Below the pieces are notes generated by a model. It had not been told where the DNA came from and made no database searches. It was given only the letters and a program-made list of their open reading frames with translations. The position numbers and the translations under genes are program-made. A stretch of 19,720 bases of DNA. Source: a virus. The DNA lies in UHGV virus genome UHGV-0194792. The stretch is one strand, 5' to 3'. Of this stretch, positions 247 to 19,720 are shown in pieces. Within the stretch, counting starts at the first letter, position 1, and each line of letters starts with the position of its first letter.

Positions 247-253
247 TCACTCA

Positions 254-273
254 GGGGCGTGGAACCGCGCCCC
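254..273 (+). terminator. possible stem-loop after the capsid gene (GGGGCG-N8-CGCCCC)
   Basis: 6-bp GC stem read directly, 254-259 pairing with 268-273. No clear T-run follows, so this may be an attenuator or RNA stability element rather than a terminator. Confidence 0.25.
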
Positions 274-295
274 CTGTTCTGACGGGTGAAGAATC

Positions 296-496: not shown

Positions 497-498
497 GT

Positions 499-1229: not shown

Positions 1230-1710
1230 TTTTCAGCAGCCCGCGGAGATGCGCTTTAACCGCGCCCGTGTCAGGCGGGCGTTTGTCACGATTGGTCAGC
1301 GTCATATGCGTGATGCCCGTCGGCTGGTGATGCGCCGTGCGCGGTCGGCACCGGGTGAAAACCCCGGTTATCAGACCGGACGCCTGGCTCGTTCGATTGG
1401 TTACATGGTACCCAGAGCCAGTAAACATCGCCCTGGTTTTATGGCACGTATAGCCCCTAACCAGCGTAATGGAGAGGGAAACCGCCGTATCACCGGTGAT
1501 TTTTATCCGGCTTTTCTGTTCTATGGCGTGAGGCGAGGGGCAAAGCGTCGTCGCAGCCATCATCGTGGTGCATCCGGTGGCAGCGGCTGGCGACTGGCTC
1601 CACGTAATAACTTTATGGTGGAAACTCTTGAAAAGAACCGCAGCTGGACACGCTATTTTCTGGCGCGGGAATTGCGTAAATCACTGAAGCCGGAGCGACG
1701 ACACAGATGA
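1204..1710 (+). CDS. HK97 gp10-like neck/tail-completion protein
   Basis: 168-aa basic protein in the expected position between head-closure and tail genes. The start may be a downstream ATG (for example 1249). Confidence 0.45.
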   Translation: MTTSFLHVDFQQPAEMRFNRARVRRAFVTIGQRHMRDARRLVMRRARSAPGENPGYQTGRLARSIGYMVPRASKHRPGFMARIAPNQRNGEGNRRITGDFYPAFLFYGVRRGAKRRRSHHRGASGGSGWRLAPRNNFMVETLEKNRSWTRYFLARELRKSLKPERRHR

Positions 1711-2267
1711 AACTGACGCCTGTTATTGCTGCGCTGCGTGCCCGCTGCCCGTATTTTGAAAACCGGGTGGCAGGCGCGGCACAGTTCAAAAATCTGCCGG
1801 AGGTCGGAAAGCTGAGACTCCCGGCGGCGTATGTGGTACCGGGTGATGACTCTCCGGGAGAAAACAAAAGCCAGACCGACTACTGGCAGGAGCTGAAAGA
1901 GGGCTTCTCCGTGGTTGTCATACTGAGTAACGGGCGTGATGAGCGCGGTCAGTTTGCCTCGTATGATGTGGTGGACGATGTCCGGCAGATGCTCTTTAAG
2001 GCCCTGCTGGGCTGGAACCCGGAAGCGTGCGGTAACCCGATTACCTATGACGGCGGCACGCTGCTGGATCTGAATCGTCATGAGCTGATTTATCAGTTCG
2101 ATTTTTCGGTCATCAGCGAGCTGACCGAAGACGATACCCGCCAGCAGGATGAGCTGAACAGTCTGGATGAACTGCGAACGCTGGCGATTGATGTTGATTA
2201 TCTCGATCCCGGTAACGGGCCTGACGGCGATATCGAACATCACACCGAAATAACCCTTCCTTCCTGA
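1707..2267 (+). CDS. phage structural protein, possibly tail terminator/completion
   Basis: 186-aa ORF, ATGA overlap with the preceding gene, immediately upstream of the sheath gene. Confidence 0.4.
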   Translation: MKLTPVIAALRARCPYFENRVAGAAQFKNLPEVGKLRLPAAYVVPGDDSPGENKSQTDYWQELKEGFSVVVILSNGRDERGQFASYDVVDDVRQMLFKALLGWNPEACGNPITYDGGTLLDLNRHELIYQFDFSVISELTEDDTRQQDELNSLDELRTLAIDVDYLDPGNGPDGDIEHHTEITLPS

Positions 2268-2275
2268 GAATCTTC

Positions 2276-2446
2276 ATGTTTGTGAAACCTGTTAAAGGGC
2301 GGTCAGTGCCTGACCCTGCCCGCGGTGACCTTTTGCCCGCCGAAGGGCGAAATGTTGACGAGAACAACTACTGGCTGCGCCGTGAAGCAGCGGGTGATAT
2401 CCGGCGCGTGAATAAAAAGGTGAACACCGATGACGATAAGCTTTAA
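2276..2446 (+). CDS. small ORF (56 aa) preceding and overlapping the sheath gene start
   Basis: Hand-translated: ATG at 2276 to TAA at 2444-2446, overlapping the sheath start by 17 nt. Below the cutoff of the supplied ORF track. Confidence 0.25.
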   Translation: MFVKPVKGRSVPDPARGDLLPAEGRNVDENNYWLRREAAGDIRRVNKKVNTDDDKL

Positions 2447-3926
2447 CACCATTCCGTCGAATACGCTGGTTCCGCTGTTTTATGCGGAAATGGATAACTC
2501 GGCGGCGAATACTGCACAGGACAGCGGGGCATCGTTGCTGATTGGTCACGCCAATAACGGTGCAGAGATTGTTGCCAACAGTCTGGTGCTGATGCCGTCG
2601 GCAGACTATGCACGCCAGATTTGTGGTGCGGGAAGTCAGCTGGCGCGTATGGTCGAGGCTTATCGCCAGACCGACCCGTTTGGCGAGCTGTATGTGATTG
2701 CCGTTCCGGAAGCCACAGGCGCGGCGGCAACGGTTACGCTGACGGTGACCGGAGCAGCAACCGAAACCGGCACGGTGAATGTGTATGTGGGACGTACCCG
2801 CGTGCAGGCACCGGTGACCAACGGCGATAACGTCACGACGATTGCCAGCAGTATCCAGGATGCCATCAATGCCGTTCCGGCCCTGCCGTTTACGGCCTCA
2901 TCTTCGGCAGGCGTGGTCACACTGACCGCGCGTCATAAGGGGCTTTGCGGGAATGAAATTCCTGTCAGCCTCAATTACTACGGCTTTGGTGGGGGCGAAG
3001 TGCTGCCAGCGGGCGTACAGATTGCCGTGGCGACGGGTACCGCCGGAGCGGGCGCTCCGGTTCTCACCGGCGCGGTGGCTGCAATGGCGGATGAGCCGTT
3101 TGATTATATCGGCCTGCCGTTCAACGACACGGCCTCCGTTAACACGCTGGTGACCGAGATGAACGATACCAGCGGTCGCTGGAGCTATGCGCGTCAGCTG
3201 TATGGTCATGTGTATACGGCAAAGATCGGCACGCTGTCAGAACTGGTGACCGCAGGTGACCAGTTTAACCAGCAGCACATTACCCTGGCGGGGTACGAAA
3301 AAGAGACCCAGACGCCTGCCGACGAACTGGCGGCAAGCCGTACCGCCCGCGCAGCGGTGTTTATCCGCAACGATCCGGCACGTCCCACGCAGACCGGTGA
3401 GCTGGTGGGTATGCTGCCTGCGCCGAAGGGGAAACGGTTCACGATGACCGAGCAACAGACCCTGCTGTCTCATGGCGTGGCAACGGCGTATGTCGAAAGC
3501 GGGGTGCTGCGCATTCAGCGTGATGTCACCACGTACAGGAAAAATGCTTACGGGGTTGCGGATAACAGCTACCTCGACAGCGAGACGCTGCATACCAGTG
3601 CGTATGTACTGCGCAAACTGAAATCCGTCATTACCAGTAAGTACGGGCGTCACAAGCTTGCCAGCGACGGCACCCGCTTTGGTCCCGGTCAGGCGATTGT
3701 CACCCCGGCGGTGATCAAAGGGGAACTGCTGGCAACCTACCGTCAGCTTGAGCGTGCGGGGATCGTGGAAAACTACGAACTGTTTAAGCAGTACCTGGTT
3801 GTGGAGCGTGATGCCAGCGATCCGAACCGCCTGAACACGCTGTTCCCGCCTGACTATGTTAACCAGTTGCGTGTCTTTGCCGTGGTTAACCAGTTCCGTC
3901 TTCAGTATTCAGAGGAGTCCGCATAA
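2430..3926 (+). CDS. contractile tail sheath protein (Mu gpL-like)
   Basis: 498-aa ORF with AAGGTG RBS 8 nt upstream, followed directly by a ~118-aa tube gene (TAATG overlap). Size and order match Mu-type sheath genes. Confidence 0.8.
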   Translation: MTISFNTIPSNTLVPLFYAEMDNSAANTAQDSGASLLIGHANNGAEIVANSLVLMPSADYARQICGAGSQLARMVEAYRQTDPFGELYVIAVPEATGAAATVTLTVTGAATETGTVNVYVGRTRVQAPVTNGDNVTTIASSIQDAINAVPALPFTASSSAGVVTLTARHKGLCGNEIPVSLNYYGFGGGEVLPAGVQIAVATGTAGAGAPVLTGAVAAMADEPFDYIGLPFNDTASVNTLVTEMNDTSGRWSYARQLYGHVYTAKIGTLSELVTAGDQFNQQHITLAGYEKETQTPADELAASRTARAAVFIRNDPARPTQTGELVGMLPAPKGKRFTMTEQQTLLSHGVATAYVESGVLRIQRDVTTYRKNAYGVADNSYLDSETLHTSAYVLRKLKSVITSKYGRHKLASDGTRFGPGQAIVTPAVIKGELLATYRQLERAGIVENYELFKQYLVVERDASDPNRLNTLFPPDYVNQLRVFAVVNQFRLQYSEESA

Positions 3927-4282
3927 TGGCCCGTATCGGGGGAACCTGTTATTTCAAAATTGACGGTCAGCAGCTATCGCTGACCGGCGGCATTGAGGTG
4001 CCCATGAACAGGACGGTCAATGATGACATCATCGGCCTGGACGGTTCAGTGGACCGCAAGGAAACTCACCGTGCGCCTTATGTCAAAGGGACCTTCAAGG
4101 TGCCGAAGAATTTTCCGGTGAACAAAATCACCTCGTCTGATGAGATGACCATCACTGCCGAGCTGGCGAACGGTCAGGTCTATGTACTGTCGTCTGCCTG
4201 GCTGCACGGCGAAGCGAACCATAATGCCGAAGAAGGCACGGTTGATCTTGAGTTCCACGGTGAAGAAGGGGATTACCAGTGA
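3926..4282 (+). CDS. tail tube protein (Mu gpM-like)
   Basis: 118-aa ORF immediately after the sheath gene and translationally coupled to it. Confidence 0.75.
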   Translation: MARIGGTCYFKIDGQQLSLTGGIEVPMNRTVNDDIIGLDGSVDRKETHRAPYVKGTFKVPKNFPVNKITSSDEMTITAELANGQVYVLSSAWLHGEANHNAEEGTVDLEFHGEEGDYQ

Positions 4283-4548
4283 TTGAGCTTGAGTTAAAGA
4301 AACCGATTACTGCTCATGGCGAGACACTCTCCGTACTGGAGTTTGATGAGCCCACCGGGAAGGATGTCCGCGAGCTGGGGTATCCCTACCAGATGAATCA
4401 GGATGAGTCAGTCAGACTTCTGGCGCATGTGGTGTCGAAATACATTGTGCGGCTGGCGAAAGTGCCGCAAAGCTCTGTCGACCAGATGTCTCCGGCAGAC
4501 CTGAATGCAGCGGCGTGGCTTGTGGCTGGTTTTTTCCTCCAGGCCTGA
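4279..4548 (+). CDS. tail assembly chaperone (short, unshifted product)
   Basis: 89-aa ORF between the tube and tape measure genes. A T-rich slippery site lies near its 3' end. Confidence 0.6.
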   Translation: MIELELKKPITAHGETLSVLEFDEPTGKDVRELGYPYQMNQDESVRLLAHVVSKYIVRLAKVPQSSVDQMSPADLNAAAWLVAGFFLQA

Positions 4549-4697
4549 CGGCTGAATACCTCACTGATCGCTTCTTTGACTGCGCCAGCTACTGGCGCAT
4601 TAATCCTTTCGAATTGCTGAATATGCCGATCAGTGAAATTCCCTTACTGGTCAGTCAGGCAAACAGGATAGAGCAGGAGAAACGCACACATGGCTGA
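4515..4697 (+). CDS. -1 frame extension of the tail assembly chaperone (frameshift product)
   Basis: The -1 frame is open across the slippery run T-TTT-TTC (4530-4536) and ends overlapping the tape measure start, as in the lambda G/GT and P2 E/E' arrangement. Confidence 0.5.
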   Translation: MACGWFFPPGLTAEYLTDRFFDCASYWRINPFELLNMPISEIPLLVSQANRIEQEKRTHG

Positions 4698-6525
4698 ATT
4701 TGAGCTTAAGGCGTTGATCACCGGTGTCGACAGGCTTTCTCCCGCGCTGTCGAAAATGCAAAAGAAAATCCGGGGATTTAAACGCCAGGCGGAAGAAGCG
4801 TCACAGGGTGGGCTGGCGCTTGGTGGCGGACTGGCAGCGGGTCTGACGCTTTCCCTGAAATCTTATGCCGATCAGGAAAACGCCGCCACCGGGCTGAAAG
4901 TCGCCATGATGGATGCGAACGGCGAGGTTGGAAAGAGCTTTCAGGACATCAATAAACTAGCTATTGGCCTGGGTAACCAGCTACCCGGTACAACGGCTGA
5001 TTTCCAGAACATGATGCAGATGCTGGTGCGTCAGGGGATCCCGGCAGAAAACATTCTGGGTGGTGTGGGTAAAGCGACAGCTTATCTTGCGGTACAACTG
5101 AAAAAAACACCGGAAGCGGCTGCTGAGTTTGCTGCAAAGATGCAGGATGCTACCGGAACGGCGTCAGAAGACATGATGGGGCTGTTCGACACTATCCAGA
5201 AGGCGTTTTATCTGGGCGTTGACGATACCAACATGTTGTCCTTCTTCACTAAAACCAGTTCTGTTCTGAAGATGGTGAACAAGGACGGTCTTCAGGCTGC
5301 ACAGAGCCTTGCCCCCATCAGCGTCATGATGGATCAGATGGGGATGAACGGGGAGTCGGCAGGTAATGCCCTGCGAAAAGTTATCCAGTCCGGATTAAGC
5401 GTTAAGAAAATCAGGGACGTTAATAAAGTTATGGCCCGCCAGAAACTCGGGGTACAGCTCGATTTTACTGACGGCAAAGGAAGTTTTGGCGGTCTTGATA
5501 ACATGTTCAGGCAACTGGCAAAGCTGCGAAAACTGACCGACGTTAAGCGAACAGGTGTACTTAAGGCAATATTTGGTGATGATGCTGAAACCCTTCAGGT
5601 GGTCAATGCTCTGATCGATAAAGGAAAGGATGGTTACGATCAGATCCAGCAGAAGATGAATAAACAGGCCAGCCTGAATAAACGTGTTCAGGCCCAGCTT
5701 GGTACGCTGTCCAACCTGTGGGAGGCAATGACGGGGACCGCAACTAACGGCCTTGCGGCTATTGGCGGCGCATTTTCTGGTGACGCCAAAAATATCACGC
5801 AATGGCTGGGAGAGTTAGGGGAAAAATTCACGAAGTTTGCGGATGAAAATCCCCGGGTTATTCGCGGCGTCGTCGGGCTTGCTGCCGGTCTTGCGATTCT
5901 GAAACTGGGATTGATGGGCGTTGGCGGTGCCATCAGTATTGTCAGCAGGATCATGTCGATGACGCCGATTGGAATGATTGCGACGGCGATAGCCCTGGCT
6001 GCGGGATTAATTATCACTAACTGGGATGTTGTCGGACCTTATTTCAAGAAGCTCTGGGAAACCATTGGTCCTTATTTTGAGGCTGGCTGGGAACTTCTGA
6101 AGAAGGTTTTTGCCTGGTCGCCGCTGGGGATGGTAATCAATAACTGGGGACCGGTTGTTAAGTGGTTTCAGGATATGTGGGACAAGCTGAAGCCAATTAT
6201 TGAGTGGTTTACCGACAGTTCCGGTGACACGGTCGATGTCATTAACTCTGCGCAGTGGGGCGCGGGTGCTTATGATGCTTATGGGACGGGAATACCGGCA
6301 CGGGGATACACACCTTATCAGGCGGTAGATCCGGCTCAGTCAAACAACGCCTCCGATGCCACAGGCCCGAATCCCTTCATGATTAACAAAGCTTCTGCGC
6401 CAAAAGTTGATGGTGAGATCAAGGTCTCTTTTGTGAATTCGCCTCCGGGTATGCGGGTTATGGAAACGCGATCCAGCGGTTTTGATGTCAGCCATGATGT
6501 TGGCTATACGCGCTTTGGCAGGTAA
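4690..6525 (+). CDS. tail tape measure protein
   Basis: 611-aa ORF directly downstream of the chaperone pair, with a Gly/Ala-rich hydrophobic segment and a Trp-rich C-terminal region. GGAGAA RBS upstream. Confidence 0.8.
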   Translation: MAEFELKALITGVDRLSPALSKMQKKIRGFKRQAEEASQGGLALGGGLAAGLTLSLKSYADQENAATGLKVAMMDANGEVGKSFQDINKLAIGLGNQLPGTTADFQNMMQMLVRQGIPAENILGGVGKATAYLAVQLKKTPEAAAEFAAKMQDATGTASEDMMGLFDTIQKAFYLGVDDTNMLSFFTKTSSVLKMVNKDGLQAAQSLAPISVMMDQMGMNGESAGNALRKVIQSGLSVKKIRDVNKVMARQKLGVQLDFTDGKGSFGGLDNMFRQLAKLRKLTDVKRTGVLKAIFGDDAETLQVVNALIDKGKDGYDQIQQKMNKQASLNKRVQAQLGTLSNLWEAMTGTATNGLAAIGGAFSGDAKNITQWLGELGEKFTKFADENPRVIRGVVGLAAGLAILKLGLMGVGGAISIVSRIMSMTPIGMIATAIALAAGLIITNWDVVGPYFKKLWETIGPYFEAGWELLKKVFAWSPLGMVINNWGPVVKWFQDMWDKLKPIIEWFTDSSGDTVDVINSAQWGAGAYDAYGTGIPARGYTPYQAVDPAQSNNASDATGPNPFMINKASAPKVDGEIKVSFVNSPPGMRVMETRSSGFDVSHDVGYTRFGR

Positions 6526-6585
6526 TGAAAAATTAATCTGTTAATGAGTCCCACTCCGGTGGGATTTTTTATGTACGGAGTTTAT

Positions 6586-7914
6586 ATGACGTGGAAAGAC
6601 AGACTTCAGGACGCGTCATTTCGCGGTGTGCCGTTTAAGGTTGAAGAAGAAAGTGCGGGAACCGGTCGTCGTGTGGAAACGCACGAATACCCGAACCGCG
6701 ACAAACCCTATACCGAAGACCTGGGGAAAATCACTTTCCGCCCGTCCATCACAGCTTATGTGGTGGGAGATGACTGCTTTGACCAGCGCGATCGCCTGAT
6801 TGACGCGCTGAATAAACCCGGTCCCGGCACGCTTGTCCATCCGACTTACGGTGAGCTGAAAGTCTGTGTTGACGGGGAAGTTCGGGTCAGCACATCGAAG
6901 AGTGAAGGGCGTATTGTCCGCTTTGACCTGAAGTTTGTCGAAGCGGGAGAACTCTCTTACCCCACTTCAGGTGCGGCGACGGCGCAGACGCTGATGTCAT
7001 CCTGTTCTGCACTGGATGACTGCATCAGTGACAGCTTCAGTGGTTTCAGTATCGATGGCGTGGCAGATTTTGTGCAGAACGACGTCGTCGGTAATGCCAG
7101 CACAATGCTTGGGTATGTTTCTGATGCGATGAAAGTGGTGGATTCTGCCGTATCGGATGCCGCCAGGCTGTTGCAGGGGGATATCTCGGTACTTCTGCCG
7201 CCGCCATCGTCAGGCAAAAATTTCGTTGAGCAGGTGCAGAAAATGTGGCGTACCGGGAAACGCCTTTATGGTAACGCCAGCGACCTGGTCACCATGATCA
7301 AAACGCTTTCCGGTGTCAGCCTCGGCAGCGATCTGCAACCGCGCGGCGTCTGGAAAACGGACAGTAAAACCACCGCCACGGCGACGCAGCAGCGTAACGT
7401 GGTTGCCAGCACCCTTCGTACGGCCGCAATCAGCGAAGCGGCGTATGCCGTCACCCGATTGCCTGCGCCAACAACTTCCGCGGTGATGCAGAATGCCGCA
7501 GTGGGGCAGGCAACAACACCCGCGCAGAGCACTGGCTGGCCTTCCGTCACGCATCCGGCACTGAACAATGCACCGGCGGTGAAAAGCACGGTTGACCTGC
7601 CGACGTGGGAAGAACTGACTGACATTCGCGACACACTGAATACGGCAATTGATAAGGAGTTGTCCCGAACAACCAGTGATGCGCTGTTTCTGGCGCTGCG
7701 CCGGGTGAAAGCAGATCTGAATGCGGATATCAACACGCGCCTTGAACAGTCTGCACGGATCATTCAGCGCACGCCGGATGAGGTTTTACCCGCGCTGGTG
7801 CTGGCGGCGACCTGGTTTGATAACGCGGCGCGTGACGCGGACATTATCCGGCGTAATGCCATTACGCATCCCGGCTTTGTGCCGGTGATCCCTCTGAAGG
7901 TGCCAGTGCAATGA
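6586..7914 (+). CDS. DNA circulation protein (Mu gpN / gp43-like tail protein)
   Basis: The track ORF begins at 6544, but ATG at 6586 has a GGAG RBS 8 nt upstream and gives an N-terminus (MTWKDRLQDASFRGVPF) resembling Mu N-family proteins as I recall them. Position after the tape measure gene matches the Mu order. Confidence 0.65.
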   Translation: MTWKDRLQDASFRGVPFKVEEESAGTGRRVETHEYPNRDKPYTEDLGKITFRPSITAYVVGDDCFDQRDRLIDALNKPGPGTLVHPTYGELKVCVDGEVRVSTSKSEGRIVRFDLKFVEAGELSYPTSGAATAQTLMSSCSALDDCISDSFSGFSIDGVADFVQNDVVGNASTMLGYVSDAMKVVDSAVSDAARLLQGDISVLLPPPSSGKNFVEQVQKMWRTGKRLYGNASDLVTMIKTLSGVSLGSDLQPRGVWKTDSKTTATATQQRNVVASTLRTAAISEAAYAVTRLPAPTTSAVMQNAAVGQATTPAQSTGWPSVTHPALNNAPAVKSTVDLPTWEELTDIRDTLNTAIDKELSRTTSDALFLALRRVKADLNADINTRLEQSARIIQRTPDEVLPALVLAATWFDNAARDADIIRRNAITHPGFVPVIPLKVPVQ

Positions 7915-8990
7915 ACGATAACGTCACGCTACGGGTAAATGGCCGGGAGTGGAATGGCTGGACATCGGTGCGCATCGGTGCCGGTGTTGAACGACTGGCG
8001 CGGGATTTCAGTGTGGAGATCACCCGCCAGTGGCCGGGAGATGAGGGTATTACCACGCTTCAGTCGCGCATTAAAAACGGTTCAAAAGTGGAGGTGCTGA
8101 TTGGTGATGAGCTGGTGATCACCGGCTGGGTGGAGGCGACGCCCGTTCGTTACGATGCCCGTTCGGTCAGCACCGGTATTGCCGGACGTAGTCTTACCGC
8201 TGACCTGATTGACTGTGCAGCCGAACCGACACAGTTTAACGGACGATCGCTGGTACAGATTGCGCAGGCGCTTGCTGCGCCTTTCGGCATTGAGGTGGTG
8301 AACAGCGGTGCGCCGTCGGGTGTTATTCCTGATGTCCAGCCTGATCACGGTGAAACGGTGATTGAGGTGATCAACAAAATACTCGGTCAGCAGCAGGCGC
8401 TGGCTTACGACGACCCGCACGGCAGGCTGGTGATTGGTGGTATTGGCTCAACGCGGGCACATACCGCGCTGGTACTTGGGGAAAACATCCTTTCCTGCGA
8501 TACGGAGAAGAGTATCCGGGAGCGGTTTTCTGTTTACCAGGTGGCGGGGCAGCGTGCCGGAAACGACGATGATTTCGGTGAGGCCACCACCACCGCGCTG
8601 CGGGCCCGCACAGAGGACGCATTAATTGCCCGTTACCGTCCGATGTATATCAGGCAGACAGGGCAGGCTACGGGGGCAGGCTGTATTGCGCGTGCTGACT
8701 TTGAAGCCCGGCAACGGGCGGCGCGGACGGATGAAACCACCTATGTAGTGCAGGGCTGGCGACAGGGTAACGGTACGCTGTGGCAACCCAACCAGCGGGT
8801 GATTGTCTTTGATCCGGTCTGTGGTTTTGACAATACCGAACTGCTTGTTTCGGAAGTCACGTTTACTCAGGACCAGAACGGCACCCTGACGGAAATCCGT
8901 GTCGGCCCGCCTGATGCTTATCTGCCTGAACCTGAAGACCCCGGCGCGCGGAAAAAGAAAAAAGCCAGAGTACAGGAGGACCCGTTCTGA
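7911..8990 (+). CDS. baseplate hub protein (Mu gpP / gp44-like)
   Basis: 359-aa ORF with ATGA overlap and AAGGTG RBS. Gene order matches Mu N-P. Confidence 0.65.
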   Translation: MNDNVTLRVNGREWNGWTSVRIGAGVERLARDFSVEITRQWPGDEGITTLQSRIKNGSKVEVLIGDELVITGWVEATPVRYDARSVSTGIAGRSLTADLIDCAAEPTQFNGRSLVQIAQALAAPFGIEVVNSGAPSGVIPDVQPDHGETVIEVINKILGQQQALAYDDPHGRLVIGGIGSTRAHTALVLGENILSCDTEKSIRERFSVYQVAGQRAGNDDDFGEATTTALRARTEDALIARYRPMYIRQTGQATGAGCIARADFEARQRAARTDETTYVVQGWRQGNGTLWQPNQRVIVFDPVCGFDNTELLVSEVTFTQDQNGTLTEIRVGPPDAYLPEPEDPGARKKKKARVQEDPF

Positions 8991-9538
8991 TGAGGACGAT
9001 TGAAGCCATGCAGCGACAACTTCTCGGCCTGATTGGGCGGGCAGTGGTGAAAAGCATCAGTGCCGCCACGAAATGTCAGACCGTGGATGTGTCCCTGATT
9101 GCCGGTGAACCCAAAGCCGGGGTTGAACATCTTGAACCCTACGGTTTTACCGCAAGGGCAAACAGCGGTGCGGAAGCGGTGGTGTTGTTTCCGGATGGCG
9201 ACCGTTCTCATGCGGTGGTTGTTACGGTGTCGGACCGGCGCTACCGCATGAAAGGGCTGCAGACGGGGGAGGTGGCTGTCTATGACGATCAGGGGCAGTC
9301 TGTGACGCTGACCCGGGAGGGGATCGTGGTGGACGGTGCAGGTAAAACGATCACGTTTCGCAATGCGCCCAGAGCACGTTTTGAAATGGACCTGGAAGTG
9401 ACCGGACAGGTGAAAGACCTGTGCGACTCCGGCGGCACCACCATGTCAGCGATGCGGCTTGCCTATAACGGCCATCGTCACAGAGAGAACGGTCAGGGCA
9501 GTAACACCGACAAACCGGATAAAGCGATGGAGGCATGA
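8990..9538 (+). CDS. baseplate spike / assembly protein V (Mu gp45-like)
   Basis: 182-aa ORF with AGGAGG RBS. Size and position fit gpV-type spikes. Confidence 0.65.
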   Translation: MRTIEAMQRQLLGLIGRAVVKSISAATKCQTVDVSLIAGEPKAGVEHLEPYGFTARANSGAEAVVLFPDGDRSHAVVVTVSDRRYRMKGLQTGEVAVYDDQGQSVTLTREGIVVDGAGKTITFRNAPRARFEMDLEVTGQVKDLCDSGGTTMSAMRLAYNGHRHRENGQGSNTDKPDKAMEA

Positions 9539-9963
9539 TGGAACTGTGGCTGACGGTGAACGGTAAACGCACCTGCGCCAGCGCACCGCTGGATCCGCTG
9601 ACCCGCGCCGTGGTGATTTCCCTGTTCACCTGGCGGCGGGCGGAGCCTGATGACAATGCCGACGTCCCGATGGGATGGTGGGGGGATACCTGGCCTGCGG
9701 TACAGAATGACCGTTACGGCTCCCGGCTGTGGCTGCTTCAGCGCGGCAAACTGACCAATCAGCTGGTGCAGACGGTAAGGGGGTATATCCGCGAATGCCT
9801 GCAATGGATGATTGATGACGGTGTGGTGTCCCGTATTGATCTGGATATCCGCCGCACCGGGATTAATGAACTGGGTAACAGTATCACTCTCTGGCGTCGT
9901 GACGGACCGGTAATGATTTCTTTTGATGATCTGTGGAGTGCGATAACGCATGGCGGACAGTGA
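9535..9963 (+). CDS. gp46-like baseplate protein
   Basis: 142-aa ORF with GGAGG RBS and ATGATG start, in the Mu gp46 position. Confidence 0.6.
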   Translation: MMELWLTVNGKRTCASAPLDPLTRAVVISLFTWRRAEPDDNADVPMGWWGDTWPAVQNDRYGSRLWLLQRGKLTNQLVQTVRGYIRECLQWMIDDGVVSRIDLDIRRTGINELGNSITLWRRDGPVMISFDDLWSAITHGGQ

Positions 9964-11008
9964 ATTTCAGCGCCCGACGCTGGCAGAAAATATCAGTATG
10001 CTCCGTAACGATTTATTCGCCAGGCTGGACGTCAGCGACACGCTCCGGCGCATGGATGAAGACGTGCGGGCAAAGGTGTATGCGGCGGCGCTGCATACGG
10101 TTTACGGTTACATCGATTATCTGGCAATGAACATGCTGCCTGACCTGTGCGATGAGTCCTGGCTGGCGCGACATGCTGCGATGAAACGGTGTCCGCGCAA
10201 GGGGGCCACGGCTGCCAGCGGGTATATGCGCTGGGAAGGTGTCAGCGATGGCCTGAAGGTGACCGCCGGGAGTGTTATTCAGCGCGATGACCTGGTTCAG
10301 TACACGGCAACTGCCGATGCAACCAGCTCCGGTGGTGTCCTGCGCGTGCCGATCGCCTGCTCAAGTGCAGGCGCGGTCGGTAACGCTGACGACGGTACGT
10401 CATTAATCCTGGTCACGCCGGTGAATGGTCTGCCGTCTTCCGGCGTGGCAGACACTCTGACAGGTGGATTTGATACTGAAGAGCTGGAAACGTGGCGCGC
10501 CCGCGTCATTGAGCGGTATTACTGGACGCCTCAGGGCGGGGCTGACGGGGACTATGTTGTCTGGGCTAAAGAAGTGCCAGGCATTACCCGTGCATGGACA
10601 TACCGCCACTGGATGGGAACGGGGACTGTCGGTGTGATGATTGCCAGCAGTGACCTGATTAATCCCATTCCGGAAGAATCAACGGAAACGGCGGCAAGAC
10701 AACACATTGAGCCACTGGCCCCGGTGGCAGGCTCTGATTTGTATGTATTCAGGCCGGTGGCGCATAAAGTGGATTTTCATATCCGCGTGACGCCGGACAC
10801 ACCGGAAATACGGGCTGCCATCACCGCCGAGTTGCGTTCGTTCCTGCTGCGTGATGGTTATCCGCAGGGAGAACTGAAGGTGTCGCGTATCAGTGAGGCG
10901 ATTTCCGGTGCGAACGGGGAATACAGCCATCAGTTGCTTGCACCGGCGGACAATATCTCCATTGCAAAAAATGAACTGGCGGTACTGGGGACGATTTCAT
11001 GGACGTGA
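9950..11008 (+). CDS. baseplate J-like protein (Mu gp47-like)
   Basis: 352-aa ORF, coupled to its neighbours, in the baseplate J position. Confidence 0.7.
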
Positions 11009-11583
11009 CAAACGATGATTACATCCATCTGTTGTCGGCACTGTTGCCTCCCGGTCCGGCGTGGTCAGCCAGCGATCCGGCGATTGCCGGTGCGGCACCG
11101 TCATTAACTCGCGTTCATCAGCGTGCGGATGCCCTGATGCGGGAGCTGGATCCGCGCACCACCACCGAACTGATAAATCGCTGGGAGCGTCTGTGCGGCC
11201 TGCCGGATGAATGTATTCCCGCAGGGACACAGACCCTTCGCCAGCGTCAGCAACGACTGGATGCGAAGGTTAACCTAGCGGGCGGCATCAATGAGGATTT
11301 TTACCTTGCACAGCTTGCTGCCCTGGGCAGACCAGACGCCACCATCACGCGATACGACAAAAGCACGTTCACCTGCTCATCGGTCTGTACTGACGCGGTG
11401 AATGCGCCGGAATGGCGGTATTACTGGCAGGTCAACATGCCAGCCGCCACCAACACCACCTGGATGACATGTGGCGACCCCTGCGATTCCGCACTGCGTA
11501 TCTGGGGGGACACCGTTGTCGAATGTGTGCTTAACAAACTCTGCCCGTCGCATACCTACGTAATTTTTAAATATCCGGAGTAA
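10999..11583 (+). CDS. Mu gp48-like tail protein (DUF2313-type)
   Basis: 194-aa ORF between the baseplate J-like gene and the tail fibre gene, the slot gp48 occupies in Mu. Confidence 0.6.
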
Positions 11584-11586
11584 TCC

Positions 11587-12357
11587 ATGCATCGTATAGA
11601 CACGAAAACCGCGCAGAAGGATAAGTTCGGCGCGGGTAAGAACGGTTTTACCCGTGGTAACCCCCAGACCGGCACGCCTGCCACCGATCTGGATGATGAC
11701 TACTTTGACATGTTGCAGGAAGAGCTTTGTGGCGTGGTGGAGGCATCCGGTGCCAGCCTGGAGAAGGGGAGGCACGACCAGCTGCTTACCGCGCTTCGTG
11801 CGCTGCTGTTAAGCCGCAAGAATCCGTTTGGCGATATCAAATCGGATGGCACCGTGAAAACAGCTCTCGAAAACCTTGGTTTGGGAGAAGGCTCTGCATT
11901 ACCTGTTGGTGTGCCTGTTCCATGGCCTTCAGCCACACCGCCAACAGGCTGGCTGAAATGCAACGGTGCGGCTTTTTCTGCTGAAGAATACCCGGAACTG
12001 GCAAAGGCTTATCCGACAAATAAATTGCCTGATTTACGTGGTGAGTTTATTCGTGGCTGGGATGACGGGCGCGGTATTGATGCAGGACGTGTTTTATTGA
12101 GCATTCAGACAGGGATGCTGGAAAAACACCGCCATATTGTTGTTGCCAATGATGGTTACGACACAAAAGATGAATGGGAACTGGCTACGATTTTCAAAAA
12201 GACATACACACAAGGACGGGGACTTGATGCCGCAAATACAGGAGGGAGTCTGATCCCATCACCGACACTTCATTCACGAGGGAGTATCGGTAATACTGGC
12301 GGGAGGGAAACCCGTCCACGAAATATTGCATTTAACTATATCGTGAGGGCTGCATAA
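11587..12357 (+). CDS. tail fibre protein: constant N-terminus fused to the currently expressed variable C-terminal cassette
   Basis: 256-aa ORF with GGAG RBS. The C-terminal part carries an [12 protein letters not shown] collar-like motif. A hix/gix-like crossover site lies inside the gene at 11864-11889, so codons after about 11877 belong to the invertible segment. Confidence 0.8.
11864..11889. other. invertase crossover site, left (hix/gix-like, 12-2-12: CTCTCGAAAACC TT GGTTTGGGAGAA)
   Basis: Imperfect palindrome with an AAACC-NN-GGTTT core resembling hixL/gix as I recall them. 15 bp (11876-11890) are a perfect inverted repeat of 13731-13745. Confidence 0.7.
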
Positions 12358-12959
12358 TGGATAACGCCGTATTAAATAGCGAGCTTATTGCCACGAAGGC
12401 GGGGAATATTACCGTCTATAACTATGATGGTAAAACTCGGGAATATATTTCTACTTCAAATGAATATCTTGCCATTGGTGTCGGTATCCCTGCATATTCC
12501 TGTCTGGATGAACCTGGTATACATAAGGCGGGTTATGCTATCTGCCGTTCGATGGATTTAAACTCATGGGAATATGTGCCAGACCATCGCGGTGAAATCG
12601 TCTATAACACCGAAACGGGAGACGCCAAAGAAATCACAGCTCCGGGTGATTATCCTGAAAATACAACCACTATCGCCCCGTTAACGCCATTCGATAAATG
12701 GGATGGTAAGAAATGGGTGACCGATACTGAGGCACAGCATAGCGCCGCAGTAGACGCGGCAGAAGCACAGCGTCAGTCACTGATTGATACTGCAATGGCT
12801 TCCATCAGTCTGATTCAACTGAAATTGCAGGCCGGGCGGAAGCTGACGCAGGCAGAAACCACCCGACTTAACGCTGTGCTGGATTACATTGACGCGGTGA
12901 CGGCAACAGATACGAGCACCGCGCCGGATGTCATCTGGCCTGAACTGCCGGAGGCGTAG
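12357..12959 (+). CDS. tail fibre assembly protein (active orientation)
   Basis: 200-aa ORF coupled to the fibre gene (stop/start overlap at 12357) with GAGGG RBS. Its C-terminus resembles that of the opposite-strand assembly gene. Confidence 0.7.
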   Translation: MDNAVLNSELIATKAGNITVYNYDGKTREYISTSNEYLAIGVGIPAYSCLDEPGIHKAGYAICRSMDLNSWEYVPDHRGEIVYNTETGDAKEITAPGDYPENTTTIAPLTPFDKWDGKKWVTDTEAQHSAAVDAAEAQRQSLIDTAMASISLIQLKLQAGRKLTQAETTRLNAVLDYIDAVTATDTSTAPDVIWPELPEA

Positions 12960-13371
12960 GCCATTCAATATCTGGCGCACCGGAAGTATCGACCAGTTCC
13001 AGTGCGTCCAGGTAATCCAGCCACAAATTATATTGCGCCAGTTCGTCACCTTTCAGACGACCAATAGCCGCTTTACCAGGCCATTGTTTACTGTTCATAT
13101 AATCGTTGGCCTGATTAATCAATTGCTGCTTCTCCAGTTCGGCTGCAGCAATTTGTTCCTCATGTGTTGGTGGTGGAATTTCGGACCATGCAGGAAAACC
13201 ATTTTCTCCAGCGATACGGATTTTTCCTTTCGGCGGTAATCCGGAAAACTCAATATACACTTGCTCATCAACTTCAACAGCATCATCTGGCCATGAGTCA
13301 GCTTGAGTGTAATCCTCTTTCATCTCCAGCGGATAGAAAGAGTTTGTAGTCGCGGAATATATGTAATTCAT
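12931..13371 (-). CDS. tail fibre assembly protein (alternative, silent orientation)
   Basis: 146-aa minus-strand ORF with GGAGTG RBS. Its C-terminus (LDYLDALELVDTSGAPDIEWP) parallels that of the + strand assembly protein (LDYIDAVTATDTSTAPDVIWP). It lies 22 nt downstream of the alternative fibre cassette. Confidence 0.7.
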   Translation of the reverse strand: MNYIYSATTNSFYPLEMKEDYTQADSWPDDAVEVDEQVYIEFSGLPPKGKIRIAGENGFPAWSEIPPPTHEEQIAAAELEKQQLINQANDYMNSKQWPGKAAIGRLKGDELAQYNLWLDYLDALELVDTSGAPDIEWPTPPAVQAR

Positions 13372-13392
13372 TTTTCACTCCATATAGCTAAA

Positions 13393-13745
13393 TTAACAGC
13401 CTAACGCTAAAAATGAAGCGCCGAGGCCAGGAGTACTGGCTCTGGATATAAATTTAACCGGGTCGGGACTAAAACCTGCACAGGCAATATAACCAACAGC
13501 CCCGCTATCTGGTGTATAGTCTTGTGAGACCAAAACACGCAGACATCTGTTTGGAAATGCAATTGGGAAATGGGTTACTACATCCTGTGCAATGCCTGGA
13601 GCGCCGATTGAGCCCCACTGAAGAATAAAACCTGATGGTAATTTTTGATATCCAGTACCTGAAACAGAAAGCGTGAAGCTACCCATATCAGGTATCTGAT
13701 TCGCCCCTGTCCCTACATTCCTTTTAGCCGCTTCTCCCAAACCAA
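13393..13745 (-). CDS. promoterless alternative tail-fibre C-terminal cassette
   Basis: The minus-strand frame is continuous with the crossover site: after inversion, ...ENL of the constant part joins [13 protein letters not shown]... in frame. Contains an ILQWGS motif typical of fibre tips. The 13 codons upstream of the site in the track ORF are not expected to be translated. Confidence 0.65.
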
Positions 13746-13757
13746 CGTTTATGAAAA
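13732..13757. other. invertase crossover site, right (hix/gix-like: TTCTCCCAAACC AA CGTTTATGAAAA)
   Basis: Inverted copy of the left site with the same central dinucleotide on the opposite strand. Lies about 55 bp upstream of the invertase start. Confidence 0.7.
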
Positions 13758-13811
13758 TGCAGAAATAACGAGCAAATGGCATCATTCCTGCTTTTGTCAG
13801 GGGGATCTACC

Positions 13812-14366
13812 ATGCTTATTGGCTATGTACGCGTATCAACAAATGACCAGAACACAGATCTACAACGTAATGCGCTGAACTGTGCAGGATGCGAGCTGAT
13901 TTTTGAAGACAAGATAAGCGGCACAAAGTCCGAAAGGCCGGGACTGAAAAAACTGCTCAGGACATTATCGGCAGGTGACACTCTGGTTGTCTGGAAGCTG
14001 GATCGGCTGGGGCGTAGTATGCGGCATCTTGTCGTGTTGGTGGAGGAGTTGCGCGAACGAGGCATCAACTTTCGTAGTCTGACGGATTCAATTGATACCA
14101 GCACACCAATGGGGCGTTTTTTCTTTCATGTGATGGGTGCCCTGGCTGAAATGGAGCGTGAACTGATTGTTGAACGAACAAAAGCTGGACTGGAAGCTGC
14201 TCGCGCACAGGGACGAATTGGTGGACGTCGTCCCAAACTTACACCAGAACAATGGGCGCAGGCCGGACGATTAATTGCAGCAGGAATTCCTCGCCAGAAG
14301 GTGGCGATCATCTATGATGTTGGTGTATCGACACTGTATAAGAAGTTTCCGGTCGGAGATAAATGA
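13812..14366 (+). CDS. serine DNA invertase (Gin/Pin/Hin/Cin family)
   Basis: The N-terminus MLIGYVRVSTNDQNTDLQRNAL with catalytic Ser in VRVST, and blocks such as GDTLVVWKLDRLGRSM and MGRFFFHVMGALAEMERELI, match my recollection of Gin/Pin. ATG at 13812 with a GGGGGA RBS is preferred over the track start at 13776. A C-terminal helix-turn-helix region is present. Confidence 0.9.
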   Translation: MLIGYVRVSTNDQNTDLQRNALNCAGCELIFEDKISGTKSERPGLKKLLRTLSAGDTLVVWKLDRLGRSMRHLVVLVEELRERGINFRSLTDSIDTSTPMGRFFFHVMGALAEMERELIVERTKAGLEAARAQGRIGGRRPKLTPEQWAQAGRLIAAGIPRQKVAIIYDVGVSTLYKKFPVGDK

Positions 14367-14541
14367 AACCGCAGGCTCGTCGTATGCAAGAAAGTGCTGC
14401 GGCTGGCTGGCCAGCTTCTGATAGTGCGAATATTGAATGATTTCCAGCCGTTATCGATTTTACATATTTTTGTATGAGAGGATTTTTACCTCCTCCCACC
14501 TATCCTCCATGACTTTACGCCACTGTCTCTAGGGCTGCTAT

Positions 14542-14556
14542 GTGCCAGAAGCGGAC
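14542..14556 (+). repeat. direct repeat copy 1 (GTGCCAGAAGCGGAC; extended imperfect match about 14531-14570)
   Basis: 15-bp perfect core read directly. The second copy is at 15595-15609. The two copies bracket the HEPN-like gene. Confidence 0.6.
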
Positions 14557-14604
14557 TTCATTAGATTCTTTGTTTTTTGTGTTAATATACTTACAATCCC
14601 ATCA

Positions 14605-15420
14605 TCAACTAACAACCCAATCATCAGATAATATATCACTGATATTGAAAATATAGGTATGGTTATTTTTACCATCTGAAATGACGATTTTTTTTAAGTT
14701 GAATCTTTCTGATATGATATGCGTTGCAAATTGTGGGATTATTAAAAACAAAGCCTCTACCTTACTGATTAATTCAATGTTGACTTTAGGTCTGAAGTTT
14801 GCATCATGAACCACTTTGTGCCTAATGTAAAATGCTTCCTCTATGAGGGCTCTCCAGTCTGGAAATATATTTTCTATCGATAAATCTTGGGAAATTTGGC
14901 CACTCAGACCGCAAGGAGATATATTAGTTGTACATATGTAGTTTAAAAAACTCTCACCCCACATGCCATTATATGCTTCTTCAAGGTCGTTTAAGTTTTG
15001 AAAGTTAAAGCTTTTACTCAATAACTCTGATAGATTTATCTCAGTGTTTATATTGATAGATGTTTCTGTTCTCATTTTAGATAGTAGTGTTGTAATTCTA
15101 GATTCATCAACTGAATGCACGAAAACAAAAACGTCTCTAAAATATGTTTCCCAGCAACTGATTAGAAATACAAAATATTGTCGATATGCTGTTTTATAAA
15201 TATCTATTTTCTTATCTTTCGTTGAAATAAGTGAATGCATAAGTCGACAATTTTCTGCAAAATTTAGTAGGAAAGACATTGAGAAGTCTTCTATAGCTCC
15301 TCTTGATTCGCGAAGAGATAGCAATTCATCAATAATTTTTTTATTGATTTTCCTAATCTTTTTCAATTGCATGCCTCGTTTTTGCTTAAGTAAAGTTGAT
15401 TTTGGAGTTTCGTCAATCAT
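14605..15420 (-). CDS. hypothetical protein with R-x4-H (HEPN-like) motif; possible Abi-type effector
   Basis: 271-aa ORF in a visibly AT-rich segment, rich in Lys/Ile/Asn. Motif RHKVVH at about residue 205 fits the HEPN signature R-[NHQ]-x3-H. The start is uncertain: 15420 has a weak RBS, and an alternative ATG is at 15372. Confidence 0.5.
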   Translation of the reverse strand: MIDETPKSTLLKQKRGMQLKKIRKINKKIIDELLSLRESRGAIEDFSMSFLLNFAENCRLMHSLISTKDKKIDIYKTAYRQYFVFLISCWETYFRDVFVFVHSVDESRITTLLSKMRTETSININTEINLSELLSKSFNFQNLNDLEEAYNGMWGESFLNYICTTNISPCGLSGQISQDLSIENIFPDWRALIEEAFYIRHKVVHDANFRPKVNIELISKVEALFLIIPQFATHIISERFNLKKIVISDGKNNHTYIFNISDILSDDWVVS

Positions 15421-15594
15421 GTTATCTTATTAGATTTAAAGATAAAGTAACTTTTTGCATAAGCTTTGCGACAAAGATAGCTTTAATGAAAGGCCTTATA
15501 GAGCTACTTGGCCATAAAAATTTTTACGATGAATTCGAATTCAGCGTCCGCTCCTCGCTTAAAGCTGTCCTTGGGCCTAACCTACGATAGCTTC

Positions 15595-15609
15595 GTGCCA
15601 GAAGCGGAC
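15595..15609 (+). repeat. direct repeat copy 2 (GTGCCAGAAGCGGAC)
   Basis: Identical 15-mer to 14542-14556. Flanking bases are partly conserved (GCTnnGTGCCAGAAGCGGAC...TAnGAT). Confidence 0.6.
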
Positions 15610-15896
15610 ATTACTAAGATAGTAACGTATCAAACGGTGGGACAAGTCATGCCAAGTGCGGAAGTGGCTAACAACCATCTGTGTTGTTTAACGGGGAACA
15701 GGTCATTCCATTGACCCGATCATTTATGTTGCGCTGACGCTTAGGTGATAAAAAGCCGCCTATGCCCGTCTATCTTTGGGGATCCGCAATGAAGTTGATT
15801 GTGAGGTTATTAGGCTGGGTCTTCTCATTTATAAGTTGTTGAAGTAGCAACGAATTATCGAGCGATTTATCCCGATTAAATGTCTCACTATTACTC

Positions 15897-17021
15897 TTAA
15901 TCGGTAAATTCATAGTTTGGCCGCATTGAGAAACGCCACAGAGGCAGGCCTCCCCCTTTGTAATCATCAGGGATGGTTACCGTGAAAAGTCTGACATTCT
16001 GCCGGGTGTCAACTGACCTGATCTGGCTGTCGTGTACAGTCTGCTCGTTAAAGGCCGACGTGACCAGCGAACTCAGCGTACCTATAAAGTCGAAACCCTG
16101 TCTTTTGTAATTTTCGTCGTCTTCCGGGGAAAATGTGTATCGGATGCTCTCAAGCTGACCATCAGTGAATATTGCCTCCGATCCGGGGCAGAGCCACTCT
16201 CCGTAGCGCATCAGATGAAACGCCGTGTTCATTTCAAATTTATCCGTTACTTGTCTGTCATTGCAGTAAATTTTAATCTCGCCAATTGTAAAATGGGCGA
16301 TGCCTTCGGGACTAACTGAAACTTCTTTGGTCCGGTCGGGGATAAGCTCAAAAACCAGATCGGGTTCTGTTGCTATCGATAGGTCGCCCAGCAGGTACAT
16401 CTCACTTTTTGCGAGCGCCGAGGCCTGCGTCAAGGTATGTTCACGCTCTAGCTCCTTCATTGAGGAGCGTGCAACCAGCGCCCACCGGCGCAGCATCCTG
16501 ATGTAGATGGCATAATAAACTGGAATACCATGGAGCTCACCGTACTTTTCAACCTTATCACTGTACGATTTCTTCAGGCGATAATCGTCAGCCACGTCAT
16601 CCGCGTTAAAGTTTTTTACTTCCACAAAGATCTGACGGCGATCCTTCAGTATAATGCGATAGTCAGGTGCCACCAGATCGGGATCGGCTGACATCAAGTC
16701 TCCGGCGTCTTCCTGTTTAAGAAACTGGCAGTGGTTCAGTGCGGCGCAAACGTGTTTAAATAGGTTTTCTATTCTTTTCCCGTTCAGCAGAATTGGATTC
16801 TGATGGGAAGCGATTAATGACGTGGTGACCTTTTGTATAAAGTCATCCTGGTGCTCGGGGTTTTTAATATCGTAATTATAGATCTGGCCCAACGAGGAAA
16901 AAAGCTCAAAGGCTTCAAATCGTTCGGGATTCCTCTTGATTCTTTCCATTAATGACTCCGCAGCTAATAAATACAACGAAATGAGATCACTTGTTTCTCT
17001 GAAGTTACCTGAAAACTGCAT
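15897..17021 (-). CDS. hypothetical protein with PD-(D/E)xK nuclease-like motif
   Basis: 374-aa ORF. The segment APDYRIILKDRRQIFVEVK carries PD followed 13 residues later by E-V-K, as in restriction-endonuclease-fold active sites. It lies 70 bp downstream of and co-directional with the FRG-like gene. Confidence 0.5.
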   Translation of the reverse strand: MQFSGNFRETSDLISLYLLAAESLMERIKRNPERFEAFELFSSLGQIYNYDIKNPEHQDDFIQKVTTSLIASHQNPILLNGKRIENLFKHVCAALNHCQFLKQEDAGDLMSADPDLVAPDYRIILKDRRQIFVEVKNFNADDVADDYRLKKSYSDKVEKYGELHGIPVYYAIYIRMLRRWALVARSSMKELEREHTLTQASALAKSEMYLLGDLSIATEPDLVFELIPDRTKEVSVSPEGIAHFTIGEIKIYCNDRQVTDKFEMNTAFHLMRYGEWLCPGSEAIFTDGQLESIRYTFSPEDDENYKRQGFDFIGTLSSLVTSAFNEQTVHDSQIRSVDTRQNVRLFTVTIPDDYKGGGLPLWRFSMRPNYEFTD

Positions 17022-17090
17022 TCTGCACGGCGATTAAAGCGGCTATGGGCCCACGCTGGCACACAGGCGTGCCGTGCGACTAAAGCGCTA

Positions 17091-18461
17091 TCAGATTCGT
17101 CCATCGTATAGTTTTGCAATTTCCGTAGCAGCCTTCTCAATGCCGGGGTACACCGTGCTTTCGTTAATGCCAAGGCGGCTCAGTTGCTGCATCAGATGCT
17201 CTTTGTTTCTAATAACAAGCTTTTTGATGTTCAGCGTACTGAGTCCCGTTTCCGGTAGGTCTACGTTTTCACCAAAGAGCAGGAAAGCGCCTGATTGGGA
17301 CGAAATACGTGCGTTACTGAGCCGACCTTTGACCACAACAATTTTACTTAGGTGGACCGGATCGATGATGCTTTTGAAATAGGACTTTTCATCGCGGATC
17401 AGGTGTAGTAGTTGTCCGCACTCTTCAGATTCGTTAAACGCCGGAATGGTGAGATTAGTTTTCAGGCTGCTTTTGAAACGAGAGGGAAGACGGGAAAGAT
17501 TGGCTATGCAACTTACGGTATCCGAGTCGAAAAACTTAATTTCACTTTTGGGCGTCGTCAGAATAATGACGTTCCCGTCAATTTCATGATTATTTTCATC
17601 GTGCTTGATTTTAGAGCAGGCAAAATATAGTGCGATCAAGGGGTTTGTTGATACATCAAGCAGGCGTGTGGGTAGGCCATAGTGTTGCATGCGCACGAGT
17701 TTATCTAGCATATACCGATCGTCTTTGAACTCGGCGGGCTGCACGGTCAGCAGCTCTGTTATCATGTCCGATTCGTGATGGCGGTAGCGATAGTTACCCT
17801 GAGTATCCTTGCGGAACAGTGAGGGTTCCAGTTGGTAGTTGATGTCCGAGTGACCGCGGTAAAATACCTCTTCATCGTTTCCCTGTGTATGATCGAGTAT
17901 CACCTGCAAGTACTGATTGATATTCGCAATGATCTCTAGTTCTTCATTATTCTCCGGTGCTTCCGCACTCGCTGCTGCGGGCTCAACATTAGAATAGCCT
18001 TCAAGGCCTAAAACACGCAGAATCTCATTTACGGAAATCTCTTTGACCGCCCAGAACGTTCTGTTTAGTCCGAAACTGCCCAGCTCCAGCTCACTTACGT
18101 ACTCTTTATCGCTGGTTAAAGGCTTGTAGCCGATATCACTGGTAATCTCATAATCAAACGCTAAAACTTTTTCTCTGTTATACACGGACGTACTTATCTT
18201 GCTGATTTTTCCTAAGCGGATGTGGCTGAAATAACCTATTTTTTCATTATCTTCATCGAATTCAATTTCCGGCTCGGACATAAATACAACGGGCAGTTCC
18301 TGAAGAAAATGATAGGTTTTTTCAGTCAGGGGAAGCAATCTGCTTCTAAGAGACTCTGGCGTGGATTCGAAGAGTCGCGACACAGGGAAAGAGTCATTGC
18401 CACTGGGTTCAGAAAAAAAAGTGTAGTATTTGGGGGTTCCGACAACGATAAGATTCAGCAT
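17091..18461 (-). CDS. FRG-domain-like protein with N- and C-terminal extensions
   Basis: 456-aa ORF with GAGGA RBS 8 nt upstream. Central blocks FYRGHSDINYQLEPSLFR and QHYGLPTRLLDVSTNPLIALYFA match my recollection of the Pfam FRG-domain signature. About 185 residues precede the domain. Confidence 0.55.
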   Translation of the reverse strand: MLNLIVVGTPKYYTFFSEPSGNDSFPVSRLFESTPESLRSRLLPLTEKTYHFLQELPVVFMSEPEIEFDEDNEKIGYFSHIRLGKISKISTSVYNREKVLAFDYEITSDIGYKPLTSDKEYVSELELGSFGLNRTFWAVKEISVNEILRVLGLEGYSNVEPAAASAEAPENNEELEIIANINQYLQVILDHTQGNDEEVFYRGHSDINYQLEPSLFRKDTQGNYRYRHHESDMITELLTVQPAEFKDDRYMLDKLVRMQHYGLPTRLLDVSTNPLIALYFACSKIKHDENNHEIDGNVIILTTPKSEIKFFDSDTVSCIANLSRLPSRFKSSLKTNLTIPAFNESEECGQLLHLIRDEKSYFKSIIDPVHLSKIVVVKGRLSNARISSQSGAFLLFGENVDLPETGLSTLNIKKLVIRNKEHLMQQLSRLGINESTVYPGIEKAATEIAKLYDGRI

Positions 18462-19000
18462 ACTTGCGATCCTCGCATAAGTTAAGTTTCTCTCTCATCA
18501 TGCCAGACTTGATAATTATTTAAACATCAGCGCTGCTATTTATATTTCACACCTTTTTGAGCCGAAACGACACTGCCATCGGTAAGCCCGGATGATACAT
18601 TCTGAAAATTCATCAGAAAAATTTACATCACGCTTTACTCCTGACGTATATCAGCACTAACGTGCCATTGCGCACGCGCTAGCTATTTAGTAGCGCGTTT
18701 CGGCGAAAAGAGATTCGGTAGTCAATGACTATATTTCGCTCATAACAGACATTCACTACAGTTGTGGCAGAAAGGTATGCATGCTGGGTGTGGGGAAGTC
18801 GTGAAAGAAAAGAAGACTGCAGTGCCGTTTGTCGTTACGTTTATCTTCATTGGCTATGCAAGTCGTAATACAAGGTGGGACAAAACTGAGACATATAAGG
18901 CCTCGCAATGGCTTGCAAGGCTTTACATGTTTTGATGTGGTGGGACGTGTGAGCGCAGTGTTGATGGGGTAATGCTTTGAATTAGAAGCGGATTCTTATA

Positions 19001-19046
19001 ATTCGTAATGCGAAGGTCGTAGGTTCGACTCCTATTATCGGCACCA
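19001..19046 (+). other. thrW: prophage attachment-site repeat (attR): 3' 46 nt of a tRNA-Thr gene, including T-arm and CCA end
   Basis: ATTCGTAATGCGAAGGTCGTAGGTTCGACTCCTATTATCGGCACCA matches the 3' part of E. coli tRNA-Thr (CGU) as I recall it, with a canonical GGTTCGACTCC T-arm. No matching 5' half is present upstream, so this is a partial copy and not a gene. Confidence 0.65.
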
Positions 19047-19643
19047 TTTAAATCAATAAGTTATCTCACATTTAAGTAAACTACGTTCTCCTCTTGTGCC
19101 TTTGATTTTGCTCGCGTGCGCGGTGAAATGCCTGACTGAAAGGTGAGCATATCGACGAACCATTTCGAGAGTTTCCCATCTGCTCATTTTTAAGTGCAAG
19201 CAGGAAAACACCGGACTAAACCAATCAGCTGTTCGAAAATGGCAAGCGGATTAATATGCCATGGCGGGGCAGCTTTGAGCCGCACGCATGGGGTGTGGCA
19301 AGCCTGATGGATTTTGCTGTGCCTGTGGTGGCGTGTTTGCTGGTTTGGCTGTTGGTTAAACGCGAAAGTCATAATGCCAGGGGAATACCGCAGGGTGTTC
19401 AGGTTTTGCATAAAAAAGCCCACCATTAAGGTGGGCAAAAGGAATGATTTATATTCTCTGAGAGAAACATTACATTTCTCCTTGTCACTTCTAACATAAA
19501 AATATGGAGAAATAATGGAGCTTATATTAATTGGCGATTAGGTAACCATGTGGTTATACAAAACAATACAGTTCTTTACATTTGCCTTGTTTTATGAATA
19601 CTCCTGAAGAGGTGTACAACATAATTAAACAAACAGGGTAAAT

Positions 19644-19720
19644 ATGAATATATTTGAACAAACTCCACCGAACCGCAGACGTTATGGTCTTGCTGCATTC
19701 ATTGGGCTGATTGCTGGCGT
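19644..19720 (+). CDS. yagU: chromosomal flank: N-terminus of a YagU-like inner membrane protein (3' end outside window)
   Basis: [25 protein letters not shown] matches my recollection of the E. coli YagU N-terminus. AGGG RBS upstream. The partial ORF runs off the window end. Confidence 0.45.

Follow-up and report, generated by a model that had tools for sequence, protein, structure and literature searches.

A 46-nt 3′ fragment of thrW at the right end of an SfV-like prophage in Escherichia coli ECONIH1

Why should the 3′ part of a tRNA gene lie near one end of a stretch of phage DNA? The window analysed here, i.e., the whole 19,720-nt stretch, contains a 46-mer, ATTCGTAATGCGAAGGTCGTAGGTTCGACTCCTATTATCGGCACCA, that occurs in it only once, on the plus strand at positions 19001–19046, without any mismatch. 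An earlier note, made from the sequence alone, had taken these nucleotides to be the 3′ portion of a tRNA-Thr gene and had interpreted them as the duplicate (attR) that remains when a phage integrates into such a gene. The tRNA assignment proved exact: the 46 nt are a perfect copy of nucleotides 31–76 of the 76-nt tRNA-Thr(CGT) gene thrW that ARAGORN calls in the same genome. The 3′ strand of the anticodon stem, the T arm, the 3′ strand of the acceptor stem and the CCA end were correctly listed in that note; the list was incomplete, because a fragment starting at tRNA position 31 also includes the whole anticodon loop with its CGT anticodon and the variable loop. Upstream, the sequence had been said not to form the 5′ half of a tRNA, and indeed the 5′-terminal 30 nt of thrW were not found anywhere in the window even when three mismatches were permitted. 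The complete cloverleaf of a functional tRNA gene is accordingly not formed, as the 5′ acceptor strand, the D arm and the 5′ strand of the anticodon stem are missing. In agreement with the prediction that no complete tRNA would be found at this site, ARAGORN detected no tRNA or tmRNA gene in the whole window. An Rfam search of positions 18700–19300 at E ≤ 1, aimed at partial tRNAs, and an Rfam search of the whole window at gathering threshold yielded no match, and RefSeq/PGAP carries no annotation at the position of the fragment.

The window as a whole is 100% identical to positions 316272–335991 of E. coli ECONIH1 (NZ_CP009859.1), and it is in this genome that the counterpart of the fragment is found. 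The intact tRNA-Thr gene that had been expected, together with an integrase, at the other end of the element is present about 41 kb upstream: ARAGORN identifies a complete thrW, tRNA-Thr(cgt) of 76 nt, directly downstream of proA, at positions 4255–4330 of the ECONIH1 locus L001. The last 46 nt of this gene (L001 4285–4330) and the fragment (L001 45273–45318, corresponding to window 19001–19046) form an exact direct repeat with a spacing of 40,988 bp, by which distance the intact gene lies upstream of the fragment, and these are the only two copies within the 50-kb locus. According to RefSeq, a gene for a tyrosine recombinase, located on the strand opposite to thrW, stops 14 nt past the tRNA and is followed by a gene for an HTH (Xis-like) protein. 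The recombinase shares 384 of 387 residues (99%) with the integrase Int of phage SfI and 348 of 387 (90%) with that of P22. Behind these two genes, RefSeq annotates a complete complement of lambdoid genes for early functions, lysis, an HK97-type head and a Mu-like tail, and this series continues into the window, where positions 1–19000 (plus strand) make up the right arm of the prophage, with the end of a capsid gene, a Mu-like contractile tail and baseplate, a Pin-invertible tail-fibre segment and a cargo cassette of three genes. From position 1 to approximately 12074, the window is 98% identical to SfII, SfI and SfV. The 40,988-bp SfV-like prophage, which combines a Mu-like tail with a P22-type Int/Xis module, is probably intact.

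The earlier note had proposed comparison with an uninfected strain as a means of defining the empty site, and such strains exist. The attB site was rebuilt in silico by joining the proA-thrW side to the sequence past position 19046, and the resulting 600 nt were searched for in complete E. coli genomes. They were retrieved at 100% identity from many genomes, and 83 genomes matched at a coverage of at least 80%. In the sister strain MS6198, the gene order at the empty site is proB-proA-thrW-(integrase relic)-yagU-ykgJ-ecpE, with a single thrW, and both 3-kb flanks are 100% identical to those in ECONIH1. As attB is intact in MS6198 and the flanks are identical, the 41-kb segment represents a clean insertion into thrW.

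A further line of evidence comes from free phages. For this purpose attP was reconstructed by attaching the int side of attL to window positions 18447–19046, and the product served as the query against phage genomes. The rebuilt sequence is contiguous in SfIV, SfI, SfV and SfII at 98–99% identity, beginning at window position 18875, crossing the core and extending into int, and it is likewise contiguous in P22 at 79% identity. Positions 18875–19000 (plus strand) therefore constitute the phage P arm on the inner side of attR, as they continue without a break into core and int in P22 and the Sf phages. In the SfI record, an ‘attP core’ of 46 bp is marked at a distance of 14 nt from the stop codon of int; it agrees base for base with the 46 nt of the window, and alignment shows the same 46 nt in the attP sequence of P22. 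For SfIV, a 46-bp attP identical to those of SfI and SfV, its presence at both prophage ends and integration at thrW have been reported (PMC3851460), and tandem integration of SfI and SfX at thrW has also been documented (PMC3306764). On either side of the rebuilt attP core, within approximately 170 nt, the hexanucleotide TGGGAC occurs in four co-oriented copies (expected number, 0.23 per 600 nt), two of which fall inside the window, at 18876 and 18941. We infer that these motifs are candidate arm-type binding sites for Int.

How precisely can the right end of the prophage be placed? Identity between attL and attR is uninterrupted over 48 nt (19001–19048, plus strand), bounded by mismatches at 19000 on the left and 19049 on the right; this is the interval in which strand exchange would have taken place. 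When the single mismatch at 19049 is accepted, the repeat measures 63 nt (19001–19063), and the 17-nt extension containing it (19047–19063, plus strand) reaches as far as stop codons on both sides, that of int at attL and that of an int relic at attR. Base 19049 is A in attL, beside the new int, and T in both attR and attB. The difference, at +3 after the CCA, segregates as expected, with the phage-type base next to int and the host-type base at attR and attB, and it places the crossover to the left of 19049. The boundary was also seen in other strains. Prophages in strains B2 and TOE3 match the window with 99.9–100% identity over 87–98% of its length. ECONIH1, B2 and TOE3 are identical through 19047–19048 and then proceed into three different right flanks: the integrase relic in ECONIH1, a K-12-type sequence leading to yagP-paoDCBA-yagU in B2, and a P4-like satellite in TOE3. 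Since one and the same prophage is followed by three flanks that diverge at 19047–19048, its end is placed independently at the CCA. The right end of the 40,988-bp SfV-like prophage is thereby fixed at window positions 19046–19048. In TOE3, the satellite (L003 25210–31047) begins straight after the att core and contains an IS3-disrupted integrase gene, gapS4a/gapS4b, psu and an ogr/delta-like gene; this arrangement is a tandem occupancy of thrW.

The direct repeat, the intact tRNA gene with its neighbouring integrase gene, the empty site, the contiguous attP of free phages and the loss of similarity after 19047–19048 in different strains establish that a prophage ends here. All defining features of a thrW attachment site of the P22/SfV family that lend themselves to in silico examination are present, and the 46-nt fragment is almost certainly the ordinary, already described attR of an SfV/P22-type temperate phage residing in E. 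coli thrW. The interpretation as an attR duplicate arising from integration into a tRNA gene is thus upheld by the direct repeat, the attB site and the contiguous attP in the Sf phages. The underlying process is best understood as site-specific recombination of the lambda type, in which Int together with host factors would pair attP with thrW. The phage attP carries a copy of the 3′-terminal 46 nt of thrW, and strands would be exchanged within the shared 48 nt. At attL, the 5′ 30 nt of thrW are then host DNA and the 3′ part, beside int, comes from the phage, while the original 3′ part of the host gene has been carried 41 kb away and now forms the right end, with the phage P arm on one side and the former host flank on the other. 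As the 3′ end contributed by attP is identical, thrW remains functional at attL. No observation speaks against this reading. Catalysis by Int is deduced from sequence comparison, which confines the exchange to some point within the 48 nt of identity.

The DNA immediately right of the core deserves particular attention, as it could suggest a different origin of the fragment. Positions 19061–19215 (minus strand) are occupied by a 45-codon pseudogene relic of an integrase C-terminus, which RefSeq lists as ‘integrase, frameshifted, missing N-terminus’. When translated, the relic (..WETLEMVRRYAHL..) shares 17 of 29 residues with the C-terminus of the prophage Int and aligns with the EMVRRYAHL stretch of Int. 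The stop codon of the relic is 14 nt away from the CCA, the same offset as that of the live int gene at attL. From this int-like offset and the match to the Int C-terminus it follows that the resident attB was already the left-hand scar of an older element integrated at thrW before the present prophage arrived; the relic stems from that element and belongs to the flank of the resident attB. One could therefore argue that the fragment is an attL-type junction of this older, degraded element, with the relic 14 nt downstream, and not the attR of the SfV-like prophage. The identical offset of relic and live int would fit such a proposal, as would the nature of thrW as a layered hotspot that harbours a P4-like satellite in TOE3 and the vat island in Nissle 1917. 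We nevertheless consider it very improbable and reject it as an alternative, because in the empty-site strain MS6198 the relic, which is unchanged there, adjoins a complete thrW. It is only the insertion of the 41-kb prophage that parts the 3′ 46 nt of thrW from the 5′ 30 nt; the older element explains the history of the flank and offers no alternative for the 46-nt fragment.

Even less credible is the notion of a decayed tRNA pseudogene, i.e., the remnant of a second, formerly complete tRNA-Thr gene whose 5′ half disappeared through mutation or deletion without involvement of a phage. Such a relic would be in line with the absence of any predicted tRNA at the fragment and of any RefSeq annotation there. 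Against it stand the 46 nt themselves, which do not carry a single mutation relative to thrW, the left breakpoint, which is the same as in the attP sites of free phages, the 126 nt to its left, which are phage P arm and in the Sf phages form one continuous stretch with int, and the single thrW at the empty site. The match to attP in free phages rules out decay of a tRNA gene. Chance similarity or an assembly artefact can be dismissed altogether, as none of 200 shuffled controls matched the 46-mer with three mismatches permitted, which rules out chance, and as the junction of P arm and core (window 18870–19046) is found with at least 80% coverage in 1211 of 5426 complete, independent E. coli genomes (about 22%). 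Among the matches listed, none of those of full length has a RefSeq annotation under the attR junction.

With the fragment assigned to the attR of the SfV-like prophage, the sequence to its right is host DNA relative to that prophage, as the earlier note had stated, and the YagU-like gene mentioned there is present: the start of the host gene yagU, identical in MS6198, covers positions 19645–19720 (plus strand; RefSeq) and is cut by the end of the window. The description of this flank simply as chromosome needs amendment, in that it starts with the integrase relic of the older element and does not contain yagP-pao. In ECONIH1, the remainder of the older element is absent before yagU, as is yagP-paoABCD, which precedes yagU in K-12 and B2. 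Nissle 1917 has the same junction between relic and yagU, situated to the right of a vat gene and an IS1 pseudogene. The approximately 265 nt between the relic and the upstream region of yagU (19216–19480) have no counterpart at this place in K-12 or B2, where yagP-paoABCD is found instead. A strong hairpin resembling a terminator lies within these nucleotides at 19418–19436 (minus strand), and in Nissle 1917 an ORF for a hypothetical protein of 45 aa is annotated over part of it. In ECONIH1, thrW has served for integration more than once and, as a complete attB, remains available to additional tandem insertions.

A comparison with known systems reveals how conventional this attachment site is. 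SfI, SfII, SfIV and SfV integrate at thrW with an identical 46-bp core, a P arm of 98–99% identity and an Int of 99% identity; as in the present prophage, int is located at attL, a slot for cargo genes lies next to attR on the prophage side, and the Mu-like tail module is 98% identical. These phages differ in that their host is Shigella flexneri, in which they cause serotype conversion, whereas the prophage studied here resides in E. coli, and in that their cargo slot carries gtrABC and not a three-gene cassette for FRG, HEPN-like and unknown proteins. The host flank also differs: in the Shigella phages it is yaiC (PMC3306764), here it is the int relic followed by yagU. The Salmonella phage P22 has the same 46 nt of thrW in its attP, an Int of 90% identity and the same order of gtr/cargo, attP, int and xis; its arms, however, are only about 79% identical, and of the 46 nt, no more than 23 bp are annotated as core in its record. 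The virion genes of P22 are not known to be related to the Mu-like tail genes of the present prophage. CP4-6, a cryptic prophage of E. coli K-12, resembles our case in that it is inserted at thrW and ends on its right, upstream of yagU, in the same 3′ fragment of this gene, which K-12 databases call ptwF. CP4-6 is distinguished by a repeat of 49 nt, by being a defective 34-kb island with intF adjoining the fragment, and by the presence of yagP-paoABCD between fragment and yagU. The attR at thrW is thus nothing new, as the 46-bp thrW core of SfI, SfIV, SfV and P22 has already been published. The practical value of its identification lies in annotation, because RefSeq/PGAP leaves the fragment unannotated.

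Just inside the P arm, the right arm of the prophage holds a cargo slot (approximately 14397–18867, between pin and the P arm), the place occupied by gtrABC in SfI, SfII, SfV and P22. Here, it is filled by a cassette of three genes, all on the minus strand (14605–15420, 15897–16949 and 17091–18461), whose products are a HEPN RiboL-PSP-like protein (Pfam match below cutoff), a protein of 350 aa without matches and an FRG-domain protein. The latter corresponds to the PADLOC candidate PDC-S15 (E = 8e-99). Sequence searches of the three proteins against Pfam, PADLOC, PHROGs and PDB returned nothing beyond FRG/PDC-S15 and the sub-threshold HEPN match, and nothing specific on FRG-domain defence was found in the literature. 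The same cassette is present, with 99.1% identity, in PhiR11_1, an unrelated lambdoid phage. The slot is probably a hotspot for defence or moron genes; that it serves specifically for the exchange of uncharacterised anti-phage defence cassettes is a more tentative proposition, to which we would give rather less than even credence. Related prophages covering 73–76% of the window have RES, SIR2, TrlF, HEPN or aminotransferase proteins among their annotated products, whose genes may lie in this slot.

On the other side of the slot, pin (13776–14366) belongs to a Pin/Gin-type invertible tail-fibre segment. This segment is bounded by 20-nt inverted repeats at 11871–11890 and 13731–13750 that are 95% complementary. 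In the same prophage in TOE3, the tail-fibre segment is present in the opposite orientation, and this inversion indicates that the Pin/Gin-type switch is active.
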